From Gemmatimonadota bacterium (GTDB lineage Bacteria > Gemmatimonadota > Gemmatimonadetes > Palauibacterales > Palauibacteraceae): DNA of 64,000 nt. The DNA lies in contig OZ220691.1 in the NCBI GenBank assembly GCA_965116475.1, positions 2,912,001-2,976,000 of the forward strand, in the 5' to 3' direction. The translations under genes and the position numbers were made by a program. The notes below the pieces were generated by a model. It had not been told where the DNA came from. It was given only the letters and a program-made list of their open reading frames with translations, and did not search any database. How positions within the stretch are numbered: the stretch's first letter is position 1; every line of letters starts with the position of its first letter. Positions 4,996 through 52,757 of this stretch are shown one piece after another.

Positions 4996-5898
4996 ATGAC
5001 GACAGCCGAATGGCGGGTCCCGGAGCCGCTCGACACCGTCGAAATCGAAGCCACCGGCGGCGCCCGCATAATTCTCAGGCGTCACGGGGACGTGAACGGC
5101 CCGCGGCTCGTTCTCAGCCACGACAACGGGCTCGCCATCGACCTCTACTACCCCTTCTGGTCGCGCCTCGTGTCCCGCTTCGAGCTGATCGTCTACGACC
5201 TCCGCAGCCACGGCCGGAACCCGGTCGCCGACCTCGCCCACCACAACGTCGCGACCTTCACGGCCGACGATGAGCGCATCCGGGCCGGCATCGAGCAGCA
5301 CTTCGGCGCGAAGCCCGCGGTCGGCGTGTTTCATTCGCTGTCGGCGATGGTGGCGCTCAACCAGGATCCGCCGGGGCGCGGGTACGCGGGGCTCGTCCTC
5401 TTCGATCCGCCCATGTACTTGGCCGACGGCGACCATTACGGCATCGACACGCTCTGGCGGCGGCTGGGCATGCTCGCCCGGCATCGCCAGCCCCGGTTCG
5501 CCACGAGGGAGGAGTTCGCCGAGGAGTTCCGGCGTTCGTGGGTGTTCGAGTTCACGCGGCCGGGGGTGGAACACCTCGCGGCCGAGGCGCTGCTCCTGCC
5601 CGCGTCGGACGGGGACGGGTACGAACTCCGCTGTCCGCGCGAGTTCGAGGCGCAGGTGTTCGACTACGGCTTCGCGTTCGCCTTCGAGCCGGACACGGCG
5701 GACTTCGCCTGTCCCGTCAAGGTGATCGGCGGCGATCCGGGCGTCGAGTTCTCCTCGCTGCCCAGCGTCGACCTGGAGGGGCTGATCGGGTGGGACTACG
5801 ACTTCATCCCGCACACGACGCACTTCCTGCAGTTGGAGAACCCCGAGGAGTGCGTCTCGACGATGATCGCGTTCCTCGAACGCGAGGACCTCGCGTAG
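4996..5898 (+). CDS. Alpha/beta hydrolase
   Basis: HDNG, YDLRSHG, FHSLSA nucleophile elbow, LVLFDPP, THFLQLENP; AGGAGG RBS. Confidence 0.8.
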   Translation: MTTAEWRVPEPLDTVEIEATGGARIILRRHGDVNGPRLVLSHDNGLAIDLYYPFWSRLVSRFELIVYDLRSHGRNPVADLAHHNVATFTADDERIRAGIEQHFGAKPAVGVFHSLSAMVALNQDPPGRGYAGLVLFDPPMYLADGDHYGIDTLWRRLGMLARHRQPRFATREEFAEEFRRSWVFEFTRPGVEHLAAEALLLPASDGDGYELRCPREFEAQVFDYGFAFAFEPDTADFACPVKVIGGDPGVEFSSLPSVDLEGLIGWDYDFIPHTTHFLQLENPEECVSTMIAFLEREDLA

Positions 5899-5983
5899 AC
5901 CACCCGCCTGGCGGGGCTTGGGCTTCCCCCGCGACTACCCGCCCCCCTGGTCGACCACGCCGCAGCCGAATGGGAGGTGCGCG

Positions 5984-6628
5984 ATGATCGAAGACATCAG
6001 GGCTGCCGCAAGCGGCTTCGTCCTGCGCTGGACCGTTCTCTGCGGGCTCGGCTTGGCGGGAGGGCTGGCCGTCGGCCTGGGTCTGGCAGCACCGGTCGAG
6101 GCGGTCGTAGGCATGATGTTGGTGACGCCCGTCACCCTGGCGTTGGCCGGTTCGATGTTCGGCGGCGCCCAGTGGCTGGCCCTGGGAAGGAGTCCGCGGT
6201 TCGGCGCGTCATGGGTCGGGACCTCGGGTCTCGGCCTCGGTGTCGGCATGACCGTCGGCATCGTGCTGGTCGAGAGGCTCGGCCCGGCATTGACCGGCGA
6301 GCCGGTGCGCCTGGCGGCGCTCGACATGCTCGGCCGAATCGGCGGCTTGGCGTTCGTCGGCGTGTTTGCCGGCCTGGGGCTGGGCGCGGCGCAGTGGCTG
6401 GCGCTCCGCGCCGCGGCTCCCGTGGCCCGGCGGTGGGTCGTCTGGTGCGTCGTCGGATTCGCCGCCGGACTGCCCGCCGGCAGCCTGGCCGCGGAGTTCG
6501 TGGGGGGACTCCAGAGCCCGGTCGGGTTCGCCACCTTCCTGGGAGTCGCCGGATTGACACTGGGAGTGTTTACGGCCAGGAGCGGGGCGGCGATTGCCGC
6601 CGGACTCGCCCCTCGACCCGCGGACTGA
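5984..6628 (+). CDS. Hypothetical multi-pass membrane protein
   Basis: Gly/hydrophobic-rich with two G.AQWLAL repeats; GGAGG RBS before ATG 5984. Confidence 0.7.
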   Translation: MIEDIRAAASGFVLRWTVLCGLGLAGGLAVGLGLAAPVEAVVGMMLVTPVTLALAGSMFGGAQWLALGRSPRFGASWVGTSGLGLGVGMTVGIVLVERLGPALTGEPVRLAALDMLGRIGGLAFVGVFAGLGLGAAQWLALRAAAPVARRWVVWCVVGFAAGLPAGSLAAEFVGGLQSPVGFATFLGVAGLTLGVFTARSGAAIAAGLAPRPAD

Positions 6629-42265: not shown

Positions 42266-43708
42266 ATGTTCTTTCGACAGGTTTTCGACGACACGCTCGC
42301 GCAGTACGCGTACCTCATCGGCTGCCAGCGTACCGGGGACGCGATCCTCTTCGATCCGCAGCGCGACATCGACCGCTACGTGGAACTGGCGGCGAGCGAA
42401 GACCTGCGGATCGTCGCCGTGGCCGAGACGCACATTCACGCCGATTTCCTCTCCGGCGCGAGAGAGTTCGCCGAACGCTTCGGGACGCGCCTCTACCTGT
42501 CCGATGAGGGCGGCCCGGACTGGCGGTACGAGTGGGCCCGCGACGGAGGCTACGACTTCGTACCGCTCCGGGACGGCGCCCGCTTCGAAACCGGCGAGAT
42601 CGCCTTCCAGGCGCTGCATACGCCGGGGCACACGCCCGAGCACATGTCGTTCCTCGTCACGGACCGTGGCGCGGGAGCGGACGAGCCCATGGGCCTCCTC
42701 TCGGGGGACTTCGTCTTCGTGGGCGACCTCGGCCGGCCCGACCTGCTCGAGACGGCGGCGCGGGTCGCCGGCGCGATGACGCCCGCGGCGCGCCGGCTGT
42801 ACGGCTCGGTGCGGAGCTTCCTCGACCTGCCCGACTACCTGCAGGTGTGGCCGGCCCACGGCGCCGGTTCCTCGTGCGGAAAGGCGCTCGGGGCCGTGCC
42901 GGAGACGACCGTGGGGTACGAGCGGCGCTTCAGCCCGGCGATCGCCGCCGCGCTGAAGGGGGAGGATGCCTTCGTCTCCCACATCCTCGAGGGACAGCCC
43001 GAGCCGCCGATGTACTTCGCCCGCATGAAGCGGGACAACCGCGATGGCGCCCCGGTTCTGGGCGGCCTCCCGCGCCCGCGCCGCGTCTCGCCGCGCGAGG
43101 CGGCCTCTCGCGCCCTGGCCGGTGCGAGCGCCGGGGATGTCGTGATCGACACGCGGCCGGACCGGTCGGCGTTCATGGCTCGGCACCTGCCGGGGTCGGT
43201 CTACGTTCCCCTCACGAAGTCGTTCTGCACCGCCGCGGGCTCCGTCCTGCCGGAGGGCGCGGCGGTCACGCTCGTCATCGACGAGACGGATCTCGAGTGG
43301 GCGGTGCGGCGCCTGGTGCGGATCGGGTTCGACGACGTGACGGGCTTCGTGGAGCACGGAGCGCTCGACCGATACTTTGACGAGGGTGGGGAGGCGGCCT
43401 CGATCCCGGAGATCGACCTTCAGGCCGCGAGCCGGCTGTCGACGAGTGGGCGGGGCGAGGTGCTCGATGTGAGGTACGCTGCGGAGTACGCGGCGTCGCA
43501 CCTTCCCGGAGCGGTCAACGCCTCCTACACGCGGCTGCCCGACTACGCGGACCGGCTGCCGCCGAACGGCTCGCTGCTCGTACATTGCCTGAGCGGCGCG
43601 CGGGCCGCGGTGGCCGCGAGCTACCTGGCCCGCGAGGGGCGCGACGTGCACTACATCAACGACCTGTTCACCGCGTACGCGGGATCGCTGGAAACCGGAG
43701 GACCCTAG
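42266..43708 (+). CDS. MBL-fold hydrolase with two rhodanese domains (persulfide dioxygenase-sulfurtransferase-like)
   Basis: ETHIHADFLSG, HTPGHTPEH, GDLGRPDL, WPAHGAGSSCG, HCLSGARA. Confidence 0.9.
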   Translation: MFFRQVFDDTLAQYAYLIGCQRTGDAILFDPQRDIDRYVELAASEDLRIVAVAETHIHADFLSGAREFAERFGTRLYLSDEGGPDWRYEWARDGGYDFVPLRDGARFETGEIAFQALHTPGHTPEHMSFLVTDRGAGADEPMGLLSGDFVFVGDLGRPDLLETAARVAGAMTPAARRLYGSVRSFLDLPDYLQVWPAHGAGSSCGKALGAVPETTVGYERRFSPAIAAALKGEDAFVSHILEGQPEPPMYFARMKRDNRDGAPVLGGLPRPRRVSPREAASRALAGASAGDVVIDTRPDRSAFMARHLPGSVYVPLTKSFCTAAGSVLPEGAAVTLVIDETDLEWAVRRLVRIGFDDVTGFVEHGALDRYFDEGGEAASIPEIDLQAASRLSTSGRGEVLDVRYAAEYAASHLPGAVNASYTRLPDYADRLPPNGSLLVHCLSGARAAVAASYLAREGRDVHYINDLFTAYAGSLETGGP

Positions 43709-43710
43709 GC

Positions 43711-46068
43711 ATGGTTACACGCACAGAGATTCGACTGGAGATCCGACCGCTTGCGGCCGCCTGCGCCGTTGTCGCGGCCTTCGCCGCCCTGACCTGGGCT
43801 GCCGCTCCCGCGCCGCTGGCCGCGCAGGGGTTCGGCACTTCGGTCGTCGTCGTCGAGGACGCGGTGCTGGTGGGGGAGCCCACCTCCGAGCGGGAGCCCG
43901 GAAGCGTGCGCGTCTTCCGCGCCGGCGACTGGACGGAGGCCCAGGCGCTGTACGCCCCGGAGGCCGCCGTGCGAGACCGCTTCGGGGTCGCGTTGGCGGC
44001 CGTGGGTTCCCGACTTTTCGTGGGCGCCCCGGGCGCGGGCGCCGTTCACGTGTACGAGCGGGGTACGGAATGGCTGCACGCGAGAGAAGTCCTTTCTCCG
44101 GGCCTGGAGGAGTTCGGGCACTCGCTGGCCGCCGGGGACGAGCACCTTCTCGTGGCGGGTCGGGACGGTTCCAACGGACAGAACGTTGTCGTCGCCTACC
44201 GGCGCGCGGTCGGCGGCGGATGGGAGGAGGATGTCCGGCTCTCGGCGGACCCCGGCCAAACAGGATTCGGGGCCTCCATCGCGCTGGCGGGCGACCTCGC
44301 CCTGATCGGCGCGCCGCTCGCCGACGAGGCTCGGGGTGCGGCGTACCTGTTTCGCTTCGACGCGGCGGCAGGCTGGCAGCGCGTAGCCCACCTGGTCGGC
44401 GATGGCGGTGAGACCGGGCGCGCCCTCGGATCGGCCGTGGCGTTCGCGGGCGACGAAGCACTCGTCGGGGCGGCCGGAGAGGACGAGGGGTTGGGCGCCG
44501 TCCACCGATTCGCAAGGAACGCCGATGGCGAATGGCAGCGCGTGGGGACGATCGGGCCGGACAACCAGCCTCCCACCGCCTTCGGCGCCGCGCTCGCCGT
44601 GGACGGCGATGTCGCCTGGGTCGGCGCCCCGGCGGCCGCCTACGGCCAAGGTCTCGTGTACCGCCTCGACCGCGTTGGGGACGGCTGGACTGTCGATCAC
44701 GGGTGGGAGATGCCGGGCCGGGAACCTGCCCCGGCGGGCCGAGTGGTTGCGGTGGGTGGCGGACACGTCGTGGCGGGTCTCCCCACCGACGACTTCGGGG
44801 CCGGATCCGTCATCGTCCGCGCGGCCGATGCCGATGAAACCGAGATCGTCCGGCTCGTGAGCGAACAGGTCGGGCTCTCCTCGATCTCGGGCGGCCAGAT
44901 CGACTGCGAGGAGGGGCTCGCCGAGGGCTTCGACTGCGACCGTGTGGACCTCCTCTCCTTCATCCCGCGGGAAGAGCTCGGCGCCCCCCGCGGCGTCCGC
45001 CTCAACGACGTGTGGGGCTGGACCGATCCGTTGACGGGAAGCGAATACGCGCTCGTGGGCCGCATGGACGGCATCGCGTTCGTCGACGTGACGGATGCGT
45101 TCAACCCGCGGTATCTCGGCAACTTCGCCAAGACGCCCGGCAGCCGGTCGAACACGTGGCGCGACATGAAGGTGTACCGGGACCACATGTTCGTCGTCGC
45201 CGACGGGGCGGGGCAGCACGGGATGCAGGTCTTCGACCTCACCCAGCTGCGCGACGTCACGGAGCCCCGGGAGTGGGAGCCCACGGCGCTGTATGAAGAC
45301 GTCGCCTCGGTCCACAACGTCGCGATCAACGAGGAGACGGGCTTCGCGTACCTGGTGGGCGCCTCCGGAGGCGGCGAGACGTGCGGCGGCGGTTCGCACA
45401 TCGTCGACATCAACGACCCGCTCAATCCCGTGTTCGTCGGCTGTTTCGCCCATCCGAACACCGGGCGCCGCAACACCGGGAACTCGCACGACACGCAGTG
45501 CGTGATCTACCATGGCCCCGACGAGGACTACGCGGGCCGCGAGATCTGCGTGAACGCGAACGAGACGGCGATTTCGATCGCGGACGTGACGGACAAGTCG
45601 AACCCGGTCGCCGTGGCGCGCGCCGAGTACCCGAACGTGGCCTACGCGCACCAGGGCTGGCTCACGGAAGACCACGCGTACTTCTATTCCAACGACGAAC
45701 TCGACGAAGTGAGCGGGCAGGTGGACGCGACGCGGACCCTCGTGTGGGATCTGCGGGACCTCGACGATCCACTCCTCGTCCGGGAGTACTACAGCGAGAC
45801 GAAGGTCACGGACCACAACCTCTACGTCCGCGGCGACCGCCTCTACATGTCGAACAACCGCGCCGGGCTGCGCGTGCTCGACATCAGCGACCCGGAGAAC
45901 CCGACGGAGGCGGGGAGCTTCGATACCACGCCCTGGGGCGAGGACGCGGCGGGCTTCGACGGCACGTGGAGCGTCTACCCGTACTTCGAAAGCGGGACGA
46001 TCCTCCTCTCGAGCCGCCGCGAGGGTCTGTTTCTCGTGAAGGCGCGGGACGAGCGACTTGTTCCCTGA
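43711..46068 (+). CDS. Choice-of-anchor B family protein with FG-GAP-like repeats
   Basis: FG.AL/VGAP repeats; NDVWGWTDP, WRDMKV, HGMQVFDL, HDTQC, YAHQGW, WSVYPYFESG. Confidence 0.85.
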   Translation: MVTRTEIRLEIRPLAAACAVVAAFAALTWAAAPAPLAAQGFGTSVVVVEDAVLVGEPTSEREPGSVRVFRAGDWTEAQALYAPEAAVRDRFGVALAAVGSRLFVGAPGAGAVHVYERGTEWLHAREVLSPGLEEFGHSLAAGDEHLLVAGRDGSNGQNVVVAYRRAVGGGWEEDVRLSADPGQTGFGASIALAGDLALIGAPLADEARGAAYLFRFDAAAGWQRVAHLVGDGGETGRALGSAVAFAGDEALVGAAGEDEGLGAVHRFARNADGEWQRVGTIGPDNQPPTAFGAALAVDGDVAWVGAPAAAYGQGLVYRLDRVGDGWTVDHGWEMPGREPAPAGRVVAVGGGHVVAGLPTDDFGAGSVIVRAADADETEIVRLVSEQVGLSSISGGQIDCEEGLAEGFDCDRVDLLSFIPREELGAPRGVRLNDVWGWTDPLTGSEYALVGRMDGIAFVDVTDAFNPRYLGNFAKTPGSRSNTWRDMKVYRDHMFVVADGAGQHGMQVFDLTQLRDVTEPREWEPTALYEDVASVHNVAINEETGFAYLVGASGGGETCGGGSHIVDINDPLNPVFVGCFAHPNTGRRNTGNSHDTQCVIYHGPDEDYAGREICVNANETAISIADVTDKSNPVAVARAEYPNVAYAHQGWLTEDHAYFYSNDELDEVSGQVDATRTLVWDLRDLDDPLLVREYYSETKVTDHNLYVRGDRLYMSNNRAGLRVLDISDPENPTEAGSFDTTPWGEDAAGFDGTWSVYPYFESGTILLSSRREGLFLVKARDERLVP

Positions 46069-46071
46069 CCC

Positions 46072-47751
46072 ATGTGTTCCGTCCTCGGCATCTTCGAGAT
46101 CGAGCCCGGCGCGGCGGGCCTCCGCCGCCGGGCGCTCGACCTGTCGCGGCGCCAGCGGCACCGCGGGCCGGACTGGAGCGGCGTCTACGCGGGCGAGCGG
46201 GCCATCCTCGCCCACGAGCGGCTCTCCATCGTCGACGTGGAGAGCGGGGCGCAGCCCCTGTTCGGTCCCGACCGCACGACGGTGCTCGCGGTCAACGGGG
46301 AGATCTACAACCACACGGAGCTGGAGCGCGGCGCCGCGCGCGGCTATCCGTTCCGGACGCGCTCCGACTGCGAGGTCATCCTCGCGCTGTACGACGGGCG
46401 GCCCGACGACCCCGCGGAGTGGCTCAACGAGCTGAGCGGGATCTTCGCCTTCGCCCTCTACGACGAGACGCGCGACCGCTACCTGATCGCGCGCGATCCC
46501 ATCGGCGTCATGCCGCTCTACACGGGGCGGGACGCGGAGGGGCGCTTCTACGTGGCCTCCGAGATGAAGGCGCTCATCGACACCTGTCCCGAGATCCACG
46601 ACTTCCCGCCGGGACACATGCTCGACAGCGGCGAGGGCGATGGCCGGCCGGTGCCGTACTACCGCCCGGGGTGGCGTGAGTACGACGCGGCGGCGGGCGG
46701 ACCGACGGATCCCGCGCGGGTGCGCGACGCGCTGGAGGAGGCGGTGCATCGGCAGCTGATGTCGGACGTGCCGTACGGCGTACTCCTCTCGGGCGGCCTC
46801 GACTCGTCGATCATCTCGGCGCTGGCCATGAAGTTCTCGCGCCGTCGCGTCGAGTCGGACGACAAGGAGGAGGCGTGGTGGCCCCGGCTCCATTCGTTCG
46901 CCATCGGACTCGACGGCGCTCCGGACCTGGAGGCGGCCCGCGCCGCGGCCGACGCGATCGGCACCGTGCATCACGAGATCGTCTACACGCTCCAGGAGGG
47001 ACTCGACGCGATCTCCGACGTCATCCGGCACCTCGAGACGTTCGACGTGACGACGGTGCGGGCGTCCACCCCGATGTACCTCATGGCCCGCCGCATAAAG
47101 GCGACGGGGATCAAGATGGTGCTCTCGGGCGAGGGCGCGGATGAGGTCTTCGGGGGCTACCTCTACTTCCACAAGGCCCCCGACGCGCGGGCGTTCCACG
47201 ATGAGACCGTCCGCAAGCTCGACCAGCTCCACAAGTACGACTGCCTGCGCGCGAACAAGTCGATGGCGGCGTGGGGGGTGGAGGCGCGCGTCCCCTTCCT
47301 CGACCGCGAGTTCCTCGACGTCGCCATGGCCCTCGACCCGGAGTCGAAACGGCCCACGGACGGCCGCATGGAGAAGCACATCCTGCGCGAGGCGTTCGAG
47401 GGACTCCTCCCGGACGAGATCCTGTGGCGCCAGAAGGAACAGTTCTCCGACGGAGTGGGCTACTCCTGGATCGACAGCCTGAAGGAGATGGCCGAGGGCG
47501 AGATCGGCGACGGACAACTCGCCAGGGCGGCCGCGCGCTTCCCCACCAACACGCCGCTCACGAAGGAAGCGTATCTCTACCGCTCGATCTTCGCGTCGCA
47601 CTTCCCCGGAGAGCCGGCCGTCCGCTGCGTCCCGGAGGGCCCGAGCATCGCGTGCAGCACGCCGGCGGCCATCGCCTGGGATCCCGCCTTCGCCGGCATG
47701 GCCGACCCCTCGGGCCGCGCCGTGCAGGGCGTGCACGCCCACAGCTATTGA
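46072..47751 (+). CDS. asnB: Asparagine synthetase B (glutamine-hydrolysing)
   Basis: N-terminal MC, RHRGPDWSG, HERLSIVD, NGEIYNH, LSGGLDSS, SGEGADE, RQKEQFSDGVG, DPSGRAV. Confidence 0.97.
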   Translation: MCSVLGIFEIEPGAAGLRRRALDLSRRQRHRGPDWSGVYAGERAILAHERLSIVDVESGAQPLFGPDRTTVLAVNGEIYNHTELERGAARGYPFRTRSDCEVILALYDGRPDDPAEWLNELSGIFAFALYDETRDRYLIARDPIGVMPLYTGRDAEGRFYVASEMKALIDTCPEIHDFPPGHMLDSGEGDGRPVPYYRPGWREYDAAAGGPTDPARVRDALEEAVHRQLMSDVPYGVLLSGGLDSSIISALAMKFSRRRVESDDKEEAWWPRLHSFAIGLDGAPDLEAARAAADAIGTVHHEIVYTLQEGLDAISDVIRHLETFDVTTVRASTPMYLMARRIKATGIKMVLSGEGADEVFGGYLYFHKAPDARAFHDETVRKLDQLHKYDCLRANKSMAAWGVEARVPFLDREFLDVAMALDPESKRPTDGRMEKHILREAFEGLLPDEILWRQKEQFSDGVGYSWIDSLKEMAEGEIGDGQLARAAARFPTNTPLTKEAYLYRSIFASHFPGEPAVRCVPEGPSIACSTPAAIAWDPAFAGMADPSGRAVQGVHAHSY

Positions 47752-47793
47752 CACGCTAACGCCCAGATCGCTCAGAGGGCTGACTTCAGCGCT

Positions 47794-48828
47794 TCAGAGT
47801 CCGTCTCCACGCGGAAGGTCGTACCAATAAAGGGTGTTGACGCCCAGGCCCGAGGTGTCCGGTTCGATCCCCAGCAGGCGATCGCCCTTGACCATTAAGT
47901 CCCGCGCCGGTGCTCTCAGCACCACGGTCTCAACGAAGGACGGTTCGTGGCCGAGCCGAAAGAGATCCACATACACGTGCTTGGCCTCTCGAAGGTGTGG
48001 TAGCCAAAGCCGACCGACAGCGTCGATGCCTCCCCACCCGTACCATGGAAGCGCCTGACTGCGCAGATCTTCGATCGACAGTCCCGCTGTCCAGCCACCT
48101 TCCCGCGCGCGCCGCGCCTGATTATCGCGGCGTCTTTGAACCACGGATTCCTCCGGCAAGCGCTCTTCGTAGGTTGGAGATGAAAGCACGGTTACTCGCC
48201 CCTCAAGCCCATCCGGATACCACAACAGGTATTCCCCGAAACAGGTAAAATAGAGAACGCCGGCTGCCACCAAGTGAGCGCTTTGTACTTTCACCTGCCC
48301 GTACCCCGGCGAGGTCCGACACCTCACGTCGGCTCCGTCCGGCCGTCCCCGCCAGAGCACCTCGCCGGTCCCGAGATGAATCTCCGCATCGGAACCTGGC
48401 TCCATCGCCAACGCCGTACTGTCTCCGCCACCGACAAGCAGGGTCCACCTCTGCGACGACGGCATGGATTCAACGAAAGTTCCCTCGGCGGTGAATCTCG
48501 AAAACCGCTGTAGGTGAGCGTCATAAAGGACAAGATCCCCATTCGACGTGGGCACGAGCCCCATGGGCGATTCCATCTCGCCTGGGCCCTCACCTCTTGT
48601 GCCGAACGACCAGCGGTTTCCGTGAATGTCTCCACAGTTGACCCGATAAAGAAAAGGATCCACCGCGCATACTGTATCGGGCGAAGGCAGGGACAGCCCC
48701 AGCAGAGTCCCGTCGAACCGGGTCGTCGCCACCGGCTCAATCTCCATCAGGTTAGCCGGCCCCGCCTGCTCTTCGCCGTCACAACCCAGAAGCAGGCCCG
48801 CCCCCAACAGAGCTACTGAAGTCCGCAC
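47794..48828 (-). CDS. Lipoprotein, probable 6-bladed beta-propeller
   Basis: Lipobox LLLGC; FGTRGEGPGEM..P, YD...R.SRF...G.F, ID..GRLW motifs; lower GC than flanks. Confidence 0.7.
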   Translation of the reverse strand: MRTSVALLGAGLLLGCDGEEQAGPANLMEIEPVATTRFDGTLLGLSLPSPDTVCAVDPFLYRVNCGDIHGNRWSFGTRGEGPGEMESPMGLVPTSNGDLVLYDAHLQRFSRFTAEGTFVESMPSSQRWTLLVGGGDSTALAMEPGSDAEIHLGTGEVLWRGRPDGADVRCRTSPGYGQVKVQSAHLVAAGVLYFTCFGEYLLWYPDGLEGRVTVLSSPTYEERLPEESVVQRRRDNQARRAREGGWTAGLSIEDLRSQALPWYGWGGIDAVGRLWLPHLREAKHVYVDLFRLGHEPSFVETVVLRAPARDLMVKGDRLLGIEPDTSGLGVNTLYWYDLPRGDGL

Positions 48829-49067
48829 TCGTCATCCATGCAGGCCCAGAACACCCGGCTGCCCGCCGACGTAGCCATAATCTCGATCGCCTCGTCGGTG
48901 AGACGATTGCCGATCGCCTCCAGCCGCTCTCGAGTGGCGTTGTACTCATCCATTCCCTGGTCGTGGCAGCCCTGCGTGCAGAGGTCTGGAGCCACCTGCC
49001 CGCTCAAGGAAAGGCTCGTCGCGAACAGCAGCGTCAGCGTCGTTGCAATCCGTCGGATCGAACGCAT
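48813..49067 (-). CDS. Small secreted peptide with CX3C...CX4C
   Basis: GGAGG RBS; signal peptide MRSIRRIATTLTLLFATSLSLSG; mature part CTQGC...CMDDEC; overlaps the lipoprotein start. Confidence 0.65.
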   Translation of the reverse strand: MRSIRRIATTLTLLFATSLSLSGQVAPDLCTQGCHDQGMDEYNATRERLEAIGNRLTDEAIEIMATSAGSRVFWACMDDECGLQ

Positions 49068-49118
49068 GATTCCTCCACCTTCCATAGGATTAGTAAGAAT
49101 CCGTATCGTGATTGCGAT

Positions 49119-49150
49119 ACCCTACGCGTGCGGGGGGGGGGGGGGTGCAA
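49119..49150 (-). promoter_or_regulatory. Putative promoter TTGCAC-N20-TAGGGT with a 14-nt homopolymer in the spacer
   Basis: G14 at 49132-49145 (+); minus-strand -35 at 49150-49145 and -10 at 49124-49119. Confidence 0.5.
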
Positions 49151-49163
49151 GCACAGAGTTCAA

Positions 49164-49349
49164 GAAGCGTATCTCTACCGCTCGATCTTCGCGTCCCACT
49201 TCCCCGGCGAGCCCGCCGTCCGCTGCGTCCCGGCGGGTCCGAGCATCGCGTGCAGCACGCCCGCGGCCATTGCCTGGGACCCCGCCTTCGCCGGCATGGC
49301 CAACCCCTCGGGCCGCGCCGTGCAGGGCGTCCACGCCCACAGCTACTGA
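49164..49349 (+). repeat. Diverged direct repeat of the asnB 3' end (copy of 47566-47751)
   Basis: 186 bp collinear; 11 substitutions counted by hand, 9 synonymous; includes the stop codon. Confidence 0.95.
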
Positions 49350-49383
49350 CTCTAAGCGTCAGTTCATCGAGGAGGGAACCGAG

Positions 49384-50640
49384 ATGAGGATCTGGCGGGA
49401 AGGAGATCGCGGGTACGCCCTCGCGCCTGCCGTGTTGGCGGCGATGTTGACGGTCTCGCCCGCACTCTCGCAGGTGCGCTGCGAAAACGGTACGGCGGAT
49501 GGGTTTCCGTGCGATCGCGTGGATCTGCTCGCCGTCGTCGCGCCCGGGCAACTCGGCGCCGGCGGGGACACCCTGCTCAACGACGTGTGGGGATGGACGG
49601 ACCCCGAGACGGGGAGGAACTACGCGCTCGTGGGACGAACGAACGGGACTGCGTTCGTCGACGTGAGCGACCCTTCCCAGCCGCGCTATGTCGGCGACCT
49701 CCCCGCGACCGAGGGCAGCGAACCCGGCCAGTGGCGGGACATGAAAGTGTTCCGCGATCACCTGTTCGTCGTTGCGGGAGGCCCGGTCCGCCATGGCATG
49801 CAGATCTTCGACCTCACGCAACTCCGGGATGTCCCGGAAGCGCGGGAGTTCCGGCCTGCGGCCACCTACGACGGGGTCGCGTCGAGCCACAACATCGTCA
49901 TCAACGAGGAGACCGGCTTCGCCTATCTGGTCGGGTCCGCGGTGGAGGGCGAGACGTGCGACGGGGGATCTCACATCGTCGACATCAACGAGCCGTTGAA
50001 CCCCATCTTCGTCGGCTGCTTCGCACATCTCGCCACGGGCCGCCGGGGTACCGGCTATACCCACGACGCGCAGTGCGTCATCTACCGCGGTCCCGACGGG
50101 GACCATCGAGGCCGCGAAATCTGCGCGGGCGGGAACGAGACCCACTTCTCGCTGGCCGACGTAACGGATAAGTCGAACCCCGTCCCGCTCTCGGCGGCCC
50201 AATACCCCGGCACCGGGTACGCGCATCAGGGGTGGTTCGGCTAGGACCACCGCTACTTACGGCAACGACGAACTCGACGGACTCGTGCGGGATATGCCTG
50301 GGCCTCGCGTGCTCGTGTTCGACGTCAGCGACCTGGAAGATCCCATACTGGTGAACGAGTACTTCGGTCCGGCGAAGGCCAGCACGCACAACCTGTACGC
50401 GCGCGGCGACCGGCTCTACATGGCGAACAACCTCGGCGGCCTCCTCGTCCTCGATCTCACCACCCCGAGACCCCGGTCACGGCCGGCAGCTTCGACACGA
50501 CGCCGTCCAGCGCGGACGAAGTCGGGTTCGGCGGGGCCTGGAGCGTCTATCCGTTCTTCGAGAGCGGGACGATCCTCGTCTCAAGCCGCCGCGAGGGCCT
50601 CTTCCTCCTCCAAATGTCCGCGCGCGAAGGGACTCGCTGA
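49384..50640 (+). pseudogene. Choice-of-anchor B family pseudogene
   Basis: Paralogue of the 43711-46068 C-terminal domain; in-frame TAG at 50242-50244, frameshifts near 50258 and 50460-50480; homology resumes (GAWSVYPFFESGTILVSSRREGLF) to TGA 50640. Confidence 0.88.
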
Positions 50641-50729: not shown

Positions 50730-52757
50730 ATGATGTACGGCAGATTCCGTGCGGTCTCCCTTTCGGCGTTTCTCCTCCCGTTCATCGGCGTGTTGTCGGC
50801 AAGTGCTCCGGTTGCGGCGCAGGAGGCGGTTTCGGTCGAACTCGTGCCGAGCGTGCTGTCGCTCGAGGTAGGGGAGGAGGCCACGCTGGAGGCGCGCGTT
50901 CTGGACGCGGAGGGGAACGTGATCGAGGCGCCGGTGCTCTTTTTTCCGAGTTTCGCGGATGGGCGAAGCGGGAGCGCGCGACGGAGCCTCGATGTGGACC
51001 GTGTCACGGGCCGCGTTCGGGCTGTGAAAGGCGGCGAGTTCCTCATCTCCGCTGTCGTGACCACCGCGCGGAACCTGCGTGCGGCGGCCGTGCCGGTGAG
51101 CGTGGCGTTCCCGCCACTCGACAGGATCGATGTGACGCCCGCGGGCGGTTCGACGTATGTCGGCGTGGCGACGCGCCACCGGGCCGGACTGCTCGACACC
51201 GCCGACGATGAGCGCGACGGCGAGATCCGCTGGTCCACCTCCGACGAAAGCGTCGCGACCGTGGACCGCTTCGGCATCCTCACGGCGCACGCGCCCGGAC
51301 AGGTGGTGCTGCGGGCCGAAGCGGAAGGCATCGCCGCGGAGGTCGCCTACGAGGTCAGGGAAAACCCCGCCGCTCGCCTGACGGTGTCCGGGAGCGCGGA
51401 GCGGGCGCGGACGGGCGACGTCGTGCGTTTCGAGGCGACTGTCGAGGACGCGATGGGCGGCGCGGTGGGCGACCTGCCGGTCACCTGGACCGTGATGTCG
51501 GATCCCTCCATCGAGGCGACGGCGGACATTCCTCCCGCGGAGATCGATGAGCAGGGCCGGTTCGTGGCCTATTTCCCCGGCGTGTACACGGTCGTGGCGA
51601 ACGTGCCGGGCCGTGCCGCGCGCACCTCGCTGGAAGTGCATCCGCGACACGCCTCGCAGGAAGTGACGTTCGTCGGGCAGGGACAGGTCAACAACGAGCG
51701 CACCTCGGATCTGTGGGTGTGGGAGGGCGTCGACGGCCGCGACTACGCGATCACCGGTACGCACGCCGCGGCGGGCGCCGTCTACTTCTGGGATGTGACG
51801 GATCCGGCGAGTCCCGTCCTCACGGATTCCGTCGTTGTCGATGCGCGCACGACGAACGACGTGAAGGTGAGCGAGGACGGGGAGGTCTGCGTCATCTCGC
51901 GCGAGGGCGCCTCCAACCGCCGCAACGGGATCGTCATCCTGGACTGCCGGAACCCGCGGGACGTGACCACGATCTCCGTGTTCGACGACGAGCTTACCGG
52001 CGGCGTCCACAACCTCTTCATCCACGACGGTCACGTGTACGCGGTGAACAACGGGCGCCGCTTCGACGTGATCAACATCGAGGACCCCGCCAGCCCGCAC
52101 CGCGTGGGCCGGTTCGAACTCGACACCCCCGGGCATGCGATCCACGACATCTGGATCGTGGACGGGATCGCGTACACCTCGAACTGGGGCGACGGGGTCG
52201 TGCTCATCGACGTGGGCGGCGGGGACCTCGGGGGCTCGCCCTCGAATCCGGTCGAGATCGCCCGCTTCCGCGACATCGGCGGGCGGACGCACGCCGCCTT
52301 CCCGTACCGGAGTCCCACGGGGCGCTTCTACGTGTTCATGGGAGACGAGGCGGGGCGGCCGGGCTTCGACGGGCAGGATCCCGAGCGCACGCCGCAGTTC
52401 ATGTCCGGGTACATCCACGTGGTGGACTTCACGGACCCGGAAAACCCGGAGGAGGTCGCGCGTTACGAGATCCCCGAGGCGGGCTCGCACAACATGTGGA
52501 TCGAGGACGACAAGCTCTACGCCGCGTTCTACAACGGCGGGCTGCGGGTGCTCGACATCTCCGGCGAACTGAAGGGGAACCTGGGCGAGCAGGGCCGGGA
52601 GATCGCGCGCTACATGGCGTACGACCCGGACGGCGTGGTGGCGAACGCGCCCTTCACCTGGGGACCGCAGATCCACAAGGGGAACCTCTTCTTCGCGGAG
52701 TACTTCAGCGGCCTGTGGGCGGTGAAGCTCCAGCCGCGCCAGGAACTCGTCCCTTAA
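50730..52757 (+). CDS. Secreted Ig-like (Big_2) plus LVIVD-repeat protein
   Basis: Signal peptide, WSTSDESVATVD, repeated DVTDP.SP / GGLRVLDIS, His-bearing blades. Confidence 0.75.
   Translation: MMYGRFRAVSLSAFLLPFIGVLSASAPVAAQEAVSVELVPSVLSLEVGEEATLEARVLDAEGNVIEAPVLFFPSFADGRSGSARRSLDVDRVTGRVRAVKGGEFLISAVVTTARNLRAAAVPVSVAFPPLDRIDVTPAGGSTYVGVATRHRAGLLDTADDERDGEIRWSTSDESVATVDRFGILTAHAPGQVVLRAEAEGIAAEVAYEVRENPAARLTVSGSAERARTGDVVRFEATVEDAMGGAVGDLPVTWTVMSDPSIEATADIPPAEIDEQGRFVAYFPGVYTVVANVPGRAARTSLEVHPRHASQEVTFVGQGQVNNERTSDLWVWEGVDGRDYAITGTHAAAGAVYFWDVTDPASPVLTDSVVVDARTTNDVKVSEDGEVCVISREGASNRRNGIVILDCRNPRDVTTISVFDDELTGGVHNLFIHDGHVYAVNNGRRFDVINIEDPASPHRVGRFELDTPGHAIHDIWIVDGIAYTSNWGDGVVLIDVGGGDLGGSPSNPVEIARFRDIGGRTHAAFPYRSPTGRFYVFMGDEAGRPGFDGQDPERTPQFMSGYIHVVDFTDPENPEEVARYEIPEAGSHNMWIEDDKLYAAFYNGGLRVLDISGELKGNLGEQGREIARYMAYDPDGVVANAPFTWGPQIHKGNLFFAEYFSGLWAVKLQPRQELVP

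Follow-up and report, generated by a model that had tools for sequence, protein, structure and literature searches.

How does a two-gene cassette come to lie between two copies of the end of a housekeeping gene, with no recombinase beside it? The question is raised by a locus in a 64,000-nt window (the whole stretch of DNA analysed; positions 2,912,001-2,976,000 of the forward strand of contig OZ220691.1) from a Gemmatimonadota bacterium (GCA_965116475.1), in which asnB, the gene for glutamine-hydrolysing asparagine synthetase B, is followed by a 1.4-kb cassette of low GC content and then by a second copy of its own last 186 nt. We favour, with a probability of roughly 55%, the reading that the locus is the old scar of an integrase-independent, homology-anchored insertion of DNA from a related lineage, either by homology-facilitated illegitimate recombination (HFIR) or by a Campbell-like integration, and that the second copy is the former end of asnB, displaced downstream. 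The finding is real, but it is a fairly ordinary recombination scar of a known kind and reveals no new kind of mobile element. The genome holding the window, a single 3.62-Mb contig, is referred to below as G000, and other G-numbers denote its relatives from the same genus.

A repeat search delimits a 187-nt direct repeat of 94% identity (47566-47752 and 49164-49350), the similarity beginning at 47566/49164 and ending 1 nt past the stop codon. Compared in the asnB frame, the 186-nt copies (47566-47751 and 49164-49349) are collinear and differ at 11 positions, nine of which are third-position, synonymous differences; the two non-synonymous ones replace E by A at 47635-47637 and D by N at 47704-47706. 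Between the copies lie two open reading frames (ORFs) on the opposite strand, cass1 and cass2, in DNA of 61.4% GC compared to 69.4% for the genome. All of this agrees with the original prediction, made from the letters of the window alone, and so does the statement that the cassette encodes no recombinase: no Pfam or NCBIfam recombinase family matches the cassette ORFs or any other part of the window, and the nearest of the six PF00589 matches in the 3.62-Mb genome, where serine recombinase families were not searched genome-wide, is ~286 kb away. The parts of the locus that concern the insertion are the following.

46072..47751, plus strand: asnB, glutamine-hydrolysing asparagine synthetase B, intact, 559 aa (NF006949, PF00733, PF13537)
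47566..47752, plus strand: left repeat copy, the functional last 61 codons and stop of asnB (repeat search, asnB-frame comparison)
47794..48828, minus strand: cass1, 344 aa, an ORF between the copies
48813..49067, minus strand: cass2, ~84 aa from MRSIRR (likely true start 49067; the ORF can be called to 49085, giving 90 aa)
49068..49163, no strand: spacer upstream of cass2, with a tract of 14 G (49132-49145), ending at the illegitimate joint with the asnB fragment
49164..49349, plus strand: right repeat copy, the displaced, non-functional asnB tail, a pseudogene fragment (repeat, polarisation, private-base counts)

Such an arrangement might be produced by the assembly itself, through a strain-chimeric join or a poly-G sequencing error beside the right copy. 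Several observations would fit an artefact of this kind. The G14 run stands 18 nt before the right copy, and short-read contigs of X20, a run from another study, break at this run; one X20 contig covers 47568-49141 with 0 differences. A contig from run X19, which may be the source sample of the assembly, covers 47688-49193, also with 0 differences, and thus bridges the joint with only 30 nt on its right side; furthermore, the depth in X19 is 36.5 over the cassette versus ~54 in the flanks, a dip that runs to 51245, past the repeats, and only hints at heterogeneity, co-occurring relatives sharing k-mers with this strain. However, the genome is a single contig, and the joint between spacer and fragment is common to G000 and two relatives, G002 and G043. 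Both junctions are also crossed, at a depth of 65, by a single contig of 5,065 nt (~96% identity) from X1, a sponge metagenome of independent origin. The G-run, too, is present at the homologous place in G002, with 10 G, so that the homopolymer is biological. The two-copy structure is not an assembly chimera, a possibility that the original prediction had raised against itself, and we regard an artefact of any sort as hardly credible, given that three assemblies of independent origin contradict it.

Of the 36 genus genomes, three contain cassette DNA (G000, G002 and G043), always with the identical 1.4-kb content and never in a larger version. Beyond the genus genomes, searches for cass1 relatives and for the joint motif gave 0 matches in a metagenome-contig collection, and in a genome-contig collection they matched only one contig of a metagenome-assembled genome (MAG), counted as the same assembly as contig C98 of G043. 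The identity of the 12.7-kb flank is 91-93% for cassette holders and non-holders alike, which speaks neither for nor against a clade of holders. The insertion is older than the split of at least three species-level lineages that share the joint.

The shared joint makes the G002 and G043 fragments orthologues of the one in G000, and both are plainly decayed: the former has acquired a stop codon in frame and lost 1 nt, and the latter contains indels. We counted private bases, defined as bases never seen in any of 22 functional asnB alleles. There are 18 in the G002 fragment (6, 7 and 5 at codon positions 1, 2 and 3), 11 in the G043 fragment (5, 3 and 3) and 3 in the G000 fragment (1, 1 and 1), and 38 in the 22 functional alleles summed (7, 6 and 25). 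The 11 differences between the G000 copies were polarised against the 21 other functional alleles. The functional end accounts for four of them, all derived and synonymous (nt 1539, 1611, 1662 and 1677 of asnB), and three more occupy third codon positions at which the genus is polymorphic; the remaining four arose in the fragment, at codon positions 3, 2, 3 and 1, one of them being common to the other two fragments. Two of the fragment-derived changes replace residues invariant in all 22 functional alleles. The displaced tail is thus not under selection, and the synonymous bias tells that one copy is a working gene, not both. The proposal that both ends had evolved as functional asnB in different lineages is contradicted by this polarisation and by the decayed fragments of G002 and G043, whereas the description of the right copy as a displaced, resident-type gene end stands. 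More generally, counts of synonymous and non-synonymous differences, used alone, can make a displaced gene end pass for another functional allele.

In the G000 fragment, decay is 4-6 times lower than in its two orthologues. This fragment lacks the derived states that these have in common (nt 1603, A; nt 1638/1641, CCG TCA) and matches the functional end of G000 itself at nt 1596/1599, suggesting that the tail was probably overwritten in part, at a later time, by gene conversion or recombination with a functional asnB end; partial overwriting would explain its gene-like look. The left border of the fragment is less distinct. When the 20 nt before 49164 are laid collinearly on asnB, allowing for a 4-nt deletion, 10/20 match in G000, 9/20 in G002 and 13/20 in G043, and in a fixed-offset test 14, 56 and 0 of 1609 other offsets, respectively, are as good; local alignments left of 49164 are no better than shuffles, 1997 (G000) and 1999 (G002) of 2000 of which scored as high. 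That the fragment once began ~20 nt further left is therefore only suggestive.

The genes on either side of the insertion are the following.

43585..46068, plus strand: A_up, an 827-aa FG-GAP / choice-of-anchor B protein (TIGR04312, 442 bits; PF14312)
49384..~50640, plus strand: A', a broken choice-of-anchor B paralogue (TIGR04312 on both pieces)
50730..52757, plus strand: 'down', a 675-aa Big_2 / choice-of-anchor B surface protein and conserved flank (family matches)

According to the reading that we prefer, the incoming DNA would have derived from a related lineage and carried the 3' portion of asnB followed by the low-GC two-gene operon. The donor asnB portion would have paired with the resident asnB on one side, serving as the homologous anchor, and the far end of the donor DNA would have been joined illegitimately inside the resident asnB, ~190-210 nt before its stop codon. 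The route would be HFIR or, equivalently, single-crossover integration of a circularised fragment. Either way, asnB would have stayed whole, ending in a tail that was new or hybrid, and its former tail (49164-49349) would have moved downstream along with the resident neighbours A' and 'down'. We infer both the homologous anchor and the route of DNA uptake; sliding 120-nt windows across asnB gave no clear mosaic boundary. Of the mechanisms entertained in the original prediction, homology-facilitated illegitimate insertion fits best, whereas an att site carrying a gene end is disfavoured, as discussed below.

The locus of G043 appears to have gone through the process twice. On its contig C98, other genes fill 3.3 kb behind the intact asnB; then come the 5' part of a 'down' gene (577 aligned nt), a 341-nt asnB tail, the cassette, the old decayed fragment, an intact A' and 'down'. 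The displaced tails thus number one in G000, one in G002 and two in series in G043. The partial 'down' is 82% identical to the 'down' of G043 itself, and its last 95 nt are 100% identical to G016/G023, indicating that the inserted DNA is foreign but congeneric. Such DNA normally lies behind asnB; here it was joined illegitimately into asnB at nt 1340, through a 3-nt microhomology (CGG), that is, at a position other than that of the primary event (nt ~1470-1495). An illegitimate joint at short microhomology, as expected under HFIR, is accordingly found at this second joint.

Could the duplication instead have been made locally, from the host's own gene? The cassette might have been captured in a replication-based event, each of its ends being joined through template switching or illegitimate recombination: the fork would have left asnB just past the stop and re-entered ~200 nt upstream, copying the host's own tail, and the differences would have arisen in place. 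Several results fit this alternative, and some of them at the same time weigh against the insertion that we favour. The donor arrangement expected under the latter, asnB followed by the cassette without a fragment, is absent from all 29 asnB loci compared. The ancestral fragment, defined by the 153 sites at which the two old fragments (G002 and G043) agree, differs from alleles of the same clade at only 6-7 of these sites; a tree of the 186-nt copies, which the original prediction had asked for and which we built, has 0 of 22 inner branches supported and permits no donor inference, so that a foreign asnB allele is neither demonstrated nor refuted. The 341-nt tail of G043 is 100% identical to the functional end of G043 itself, as a self-made duplication predicts, whereas an imported one needs a conspecific donor or later conversion; and the illegitimate second joint, at its 3-nt microhomology, would suit a local event too. 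Other points burden the favoured reading only. The nested structure as a whole comes from one short-read MAG contig. The ground for gene conversion in G000 is solely the 4-6-fold lower decay, and a C at asnB nt 1527, common to all three fragments, lies inside the supposed conversion tract. Genes resembling comEC and dprA are present in the host, but also in 10-11 of 14 control genomes, and natural transformation is only a candidate route.

The local event nevertheless has to accept coincidences. Its left joint must have landed by chance within 1 nt past the stop and, in G043, a second time at the stop. The third-position states CCG TCA (nt 1638/1641) link the two old fragments to the alleles of G017, G010 and G051 and not to the functional ends of their own hosts, and the DNA inserted in G043 is congeneric chromosomal sequence that normally stands beside asnB, which fits an asnB-anchored import better. 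We therefore consider a local origin unlikely and retain the homology-anchored insertion as the preferred explanation.

The geometry of the locus also recalls the cryptic prophage e14 of Escherichia coli K-12, which is flanked by icd and icdC (Hill et al., 1989, cited in PMC13626634). There, as at asnB, the housekeeping gene is kept intact by a replacement 3' end from the insert, the displaced C-terminal fragment is a pseudogene, and most differences between the two ends are synonymous; a chimeric gene is restored when the icd ends recombine (PMC13626634). The asnB cassette might accordingly be the remnant of a site-specific element of the e14/icd type, with the asnB end in its attP and with the integrase and most genes lost. 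The order icd...e14...icdC, its mostly synonymous differences (PMC13626634) and the end of the repeat at the asnB stop codon would all suit such an origin. However, the e14 prophage measures 15 kb, encodes a site-specific integrase of its own and is excised upon SOS induction (PMC13626634). At asnB, by contrast, the insert spans 1.4 kb, with two genes unrelated to mobility; an integrase is lacking, the breakpoint is not fixed, and there is no excision product among the joints listed. Of the hallmarks of this class, the gene-end direct repeat is present, but there is no adjacent recombinase and the crossover position is not constant. No integrase was found in the cassette, in the window or among the 22 ORFs scanned in the variable inserts of relatives, all three holders have the same 1.4 kb, and the second event in G043 used a different breakpoint (nt 1340) and brought in ordinary chromosomal DNA. 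The lack of an integrase and the different breakpoint of the second event together disfavour a gene-end att site, making a degenerate e14-like element quite improbable.

Excision was also considered in the form of RecA-mediated recombination between the repeats, as the original prediction had suggested. The excised allele, a joint skipping 1,598 nt, was not among the joints listed for four runs (three represented by contigs and one by raw reads, with 9 reads), and what could be checked lends the idea no support.

Other parallels are found among insertions without a recombinase. HFIR is known from natural transformation (de Vries and Wackernagel, 2002; Prudhomme et al., 2002; Meier and Wackernagel, 2003; cited in PMC5361080, cf. 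PMC3240628), and the asnB locus resembles it in importing foreign DNA without a recombinase, in the short GC-rich microhomology (CGG) at the illegitimate joint of G043 and in its presumed homologous anchor on the other side. The inserted DNA is also foreign, as judged from the GC content of the cassette and the partial-'down' identities in G043. Laboratory HFIR usually yields insertion-deletions, whereas at asnB the illegitimate joint lies upstream of the gene end, which results in a duplication of 186-341 nt. An HFIR-like displacement has been proposed for the type VI secretion system (T6SS) effector-immunity arrays of Vibrio cholerae and for the 'orphan' 3' regions of Rhs and contact-dependent inhibition (CDI) loci (PMC5361080). 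These share with the event proposed for asnB an anchor on a conserved upstream stretch, an illegitimate far joint and a resident 3' part kept downstream (PMC5361080), and the serial relics stacked in such arrays are matched by the two asnB tails in series in G043. Whereas the anchor in the Rhs/T6SS systems is a polymorphic toxin, at asnB it would be the gene of a housekeeping enzyme; no toxin or immunity domain is recognised in the cargo, and there is no evident selective reason for keeping the relic.

Variable slots that are flanked by core genes and lack an integrase are known as the 'minimal mobile elements' of Neisseria and as hotspots of horizontal gene transfer. The asnB locus is similar in its conserved flanks (A_up-asnB and 'down'), its content differing by lineage and its lack of mobility genes, but differs in that duplicated gene ends are not required in those slots, whereas the asnB scar records the entry of one cassette. 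Campbell-type insertion-duplication, in which a circular molecule is integrated by a single crossover, likewise leaves direct repeats of the homologous segment flanking the inserted DNA; a circular intermediate at asnB is a proposal. Transformation with partly homologous DNA also makes merodiploids, that is, duplications, in Streptococcus pneumoniae (PMC3784515), but those described in that source are tandem duplications of 100-900 kb between insertion sequence repeats and, in this respect, are unlike the asnB locus (PMC3784515).

The cassette is compositionally foreign to the host genome. Its GC content is within the lowest 2% of 1.3-kb windows, and the GC content at third codon positions is 0.67 in cass1 versus 0.94 in asnB, both asnB copies being native-like (0.92-0.94). 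Neither cassette ORF matches a Pfam or NCBIfam family, cass1 giving no Pfam match even at E<=5, and no toxin or immunity family is matched by either. Nevertheless, several lines of evidence point to the fold of cass1. Its N-terminus closes with a lipobox-like LLLGC, and a profile of the cass1 family (15 members) matches the NHL domains of solved structures with an E value of 4e-30. An AlphaFold2 model built from the 15-sequence alignment reached a mean predicted local distance difference test (pLDDT) score of 80.4, compared to 32.6 for a single-sequence model, and its best Foldseek matches are the NHL domains of TRIM2 and Brat (E ~5e-11); the ESM Atlas neighbours are '6-bladed beta-propeller' clusters (0.95). 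We thus predict cass1 to be a lipoprotein with an NHL-type six-bladed beta-propeller fold. The product of cass2 is predicted to be a small secreted, Cys-containing protein, its gene being the first of the cass2-cass1 pair. A cass2-like gene stands directly upstream of a cass1-like gene in four paralogous modules (L026, L027, L028 and L085), showing that the cargo is a conserved two-gene module, and the same order is found in two orthologous cassettes. One of the paralogous modules is located elsewhere in G000 (C1:1563995-1565429; L085 ~4998-6430), with 36% and 43% amino acid identity, a GC content of 63% and one TGA within the cass1-like match.

The G14 run lies 65-78 nt upstream of the likely cass2 start and is one of only three G/C runs of at least 10 nt in the 3.62-Mb genome. 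The tract varies by lineage: it comprises 14 G in G000 and 10 in G002, is 6 nt shorter in the X1 strain and is interrupted in G043. Judging from the sequence, it could act as a slipped-strand switch for the cass2-cass1 operon. A scan of 47600-49500 for promoter and terminator consensus sequences returned 0 promoters and one terminator-like site, which is at the shuffle level.

How the cassette relates to the rest of the genus becomes apparent from the region behind asnB. The asnB protein matches NF006949 with 858 bits over residues 1-558 of 559, and orthologues are encoded in 19 of 24 genomes of the genus at 78-97% amino acid identity, with DNA matches in 9 of 10 further genus genomes; these and G000 make up the 29 asnB loci compared, G046 being left out. 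A_up precedes asnB in the relatives too, at 82-90% nucleotide identity, and is syntenic across the genus. On the other side, the sequences of relatives diverge from the first bases past the asnB stop. 'Down' lies within the fetched stretch at 18 of the 29 loci, at a variable distance from asnB, and was not found in the other 11 fetched stretches, two of which are only ~2 kb long. At seven loci the slot is empty, with 'down' beginning 73-111 nt past the asnB stop (G041, G005, G022, G003, G012, G006 and G007), and at three it holds A' alone (G020, G044 and G051), whereas other inserts, of 0.4-2.1 kb, are present in G016/G011, G023, G017 and G008. The distance from asnB to 'down' in the three cassette holders is 1.9, 3.0 and 7.2 kb. 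The interval behind asnB is thus a variable region flanked by core genes in this genus, and differing contents at the same junction bear out the suggestion of a cassette-exchange spot at the asnB end.

The contents of the slot in relatives include an AAA_14/DUF4143 ATPase gene (G017, G010 and G048) and genes for PDZ, Ig and leucine-rich repeat (LRR) proteins. No recombinase was recognised in the ORFs scanned from these inserts, and we infer that turnover of the slot proceeds mostly via homologous recombination in the flanks. The slot of G042 (L075, 0.15-4.7 kb past asnB) is defence-like, encoding a GmrSD_N protein, an AAA_15/AAA_21 ATPase with DUF3696 and a PD-(D/E)XK nuclease.

A' is a paralogue of the C-terminal part of A_up (71-77% nucleotide identity) and is intact in six relatives, where it comprises 414-440 aa in an alignment of orthologues. 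Three lesions interrupt it in G000: a TAG in frame at 50242 and two deletions, of 2 nt after 50257 and of 1 nt after 50461. The same lesions are present in contigs of X19 and X20, with 0 differences. The X1 contig, past the cassette and the fragment, reaches 'down' without A', as does G002. In G002 (L048), ~1600-1780 nt past the asnB stop, between the asnB fragment and an intergenic sequence like that of G022, there is a ~89-nt relic of the AAA_14/DUF4143 ATPase gene, indicating further turnover behind the fragment.

A broader idea is that the asnB tail is, in this sponge-associated genus, a reusable, integrase-free landing pad on which successive homology-anchored captures stack tails (two in G043), much like the Rhs/T6SS orphan arrays though on a housekeeping gene, and that the retained tails are recombinationally active. 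We hold this only tentatively and think it somewhat doubtful; if true, it would explain the conversion in G000, the replacement of A' in G002 and in the X1 strain, and a possible RecA-mediated loss of the cassette, and the scar itself would promote further cassette turnover.

Whatever the fate of that idea, the locus is a clean natural example of the gain of accessory genes without mobile-element machinery in uncultured bacteria. Its age shows in how the relic has decayed in three lineages, a nested repetition occurred once, and the scar keeps the breakpoints. For these Candidatus Palauibacter-like sponge symbionts, it also identifies the interval between asnB and 'down' as a variable slot, where several lineages encode surface or secreted proteins and G042 has genes of the defence type.

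At three loci (L043 of G008, L047 of G020 and L049 of G017), the first ~60 nt past the asnB stop, before the next gene, contain an AT-rich inverted repeat. It is a putative Fur box-like motif.

Elsewhere in G000, 140 nearby pairs of direct repeats were screened for other gene-end duplications, and none of the seven candidates inspected was convincing. The best-looking of them (C1:1234425/1236137) consists of paralogous small genes around a DUF3800 gene, not of a displaced gene end. At this place (C1:1234425-1236297; L084), the DUF3800 gene stands between two 161-nt copies of 90% identity. They correspond to the beginning (5' end) of a small gene on the minus strand, the product of which, judged by its translation, looks like an antitoxin.

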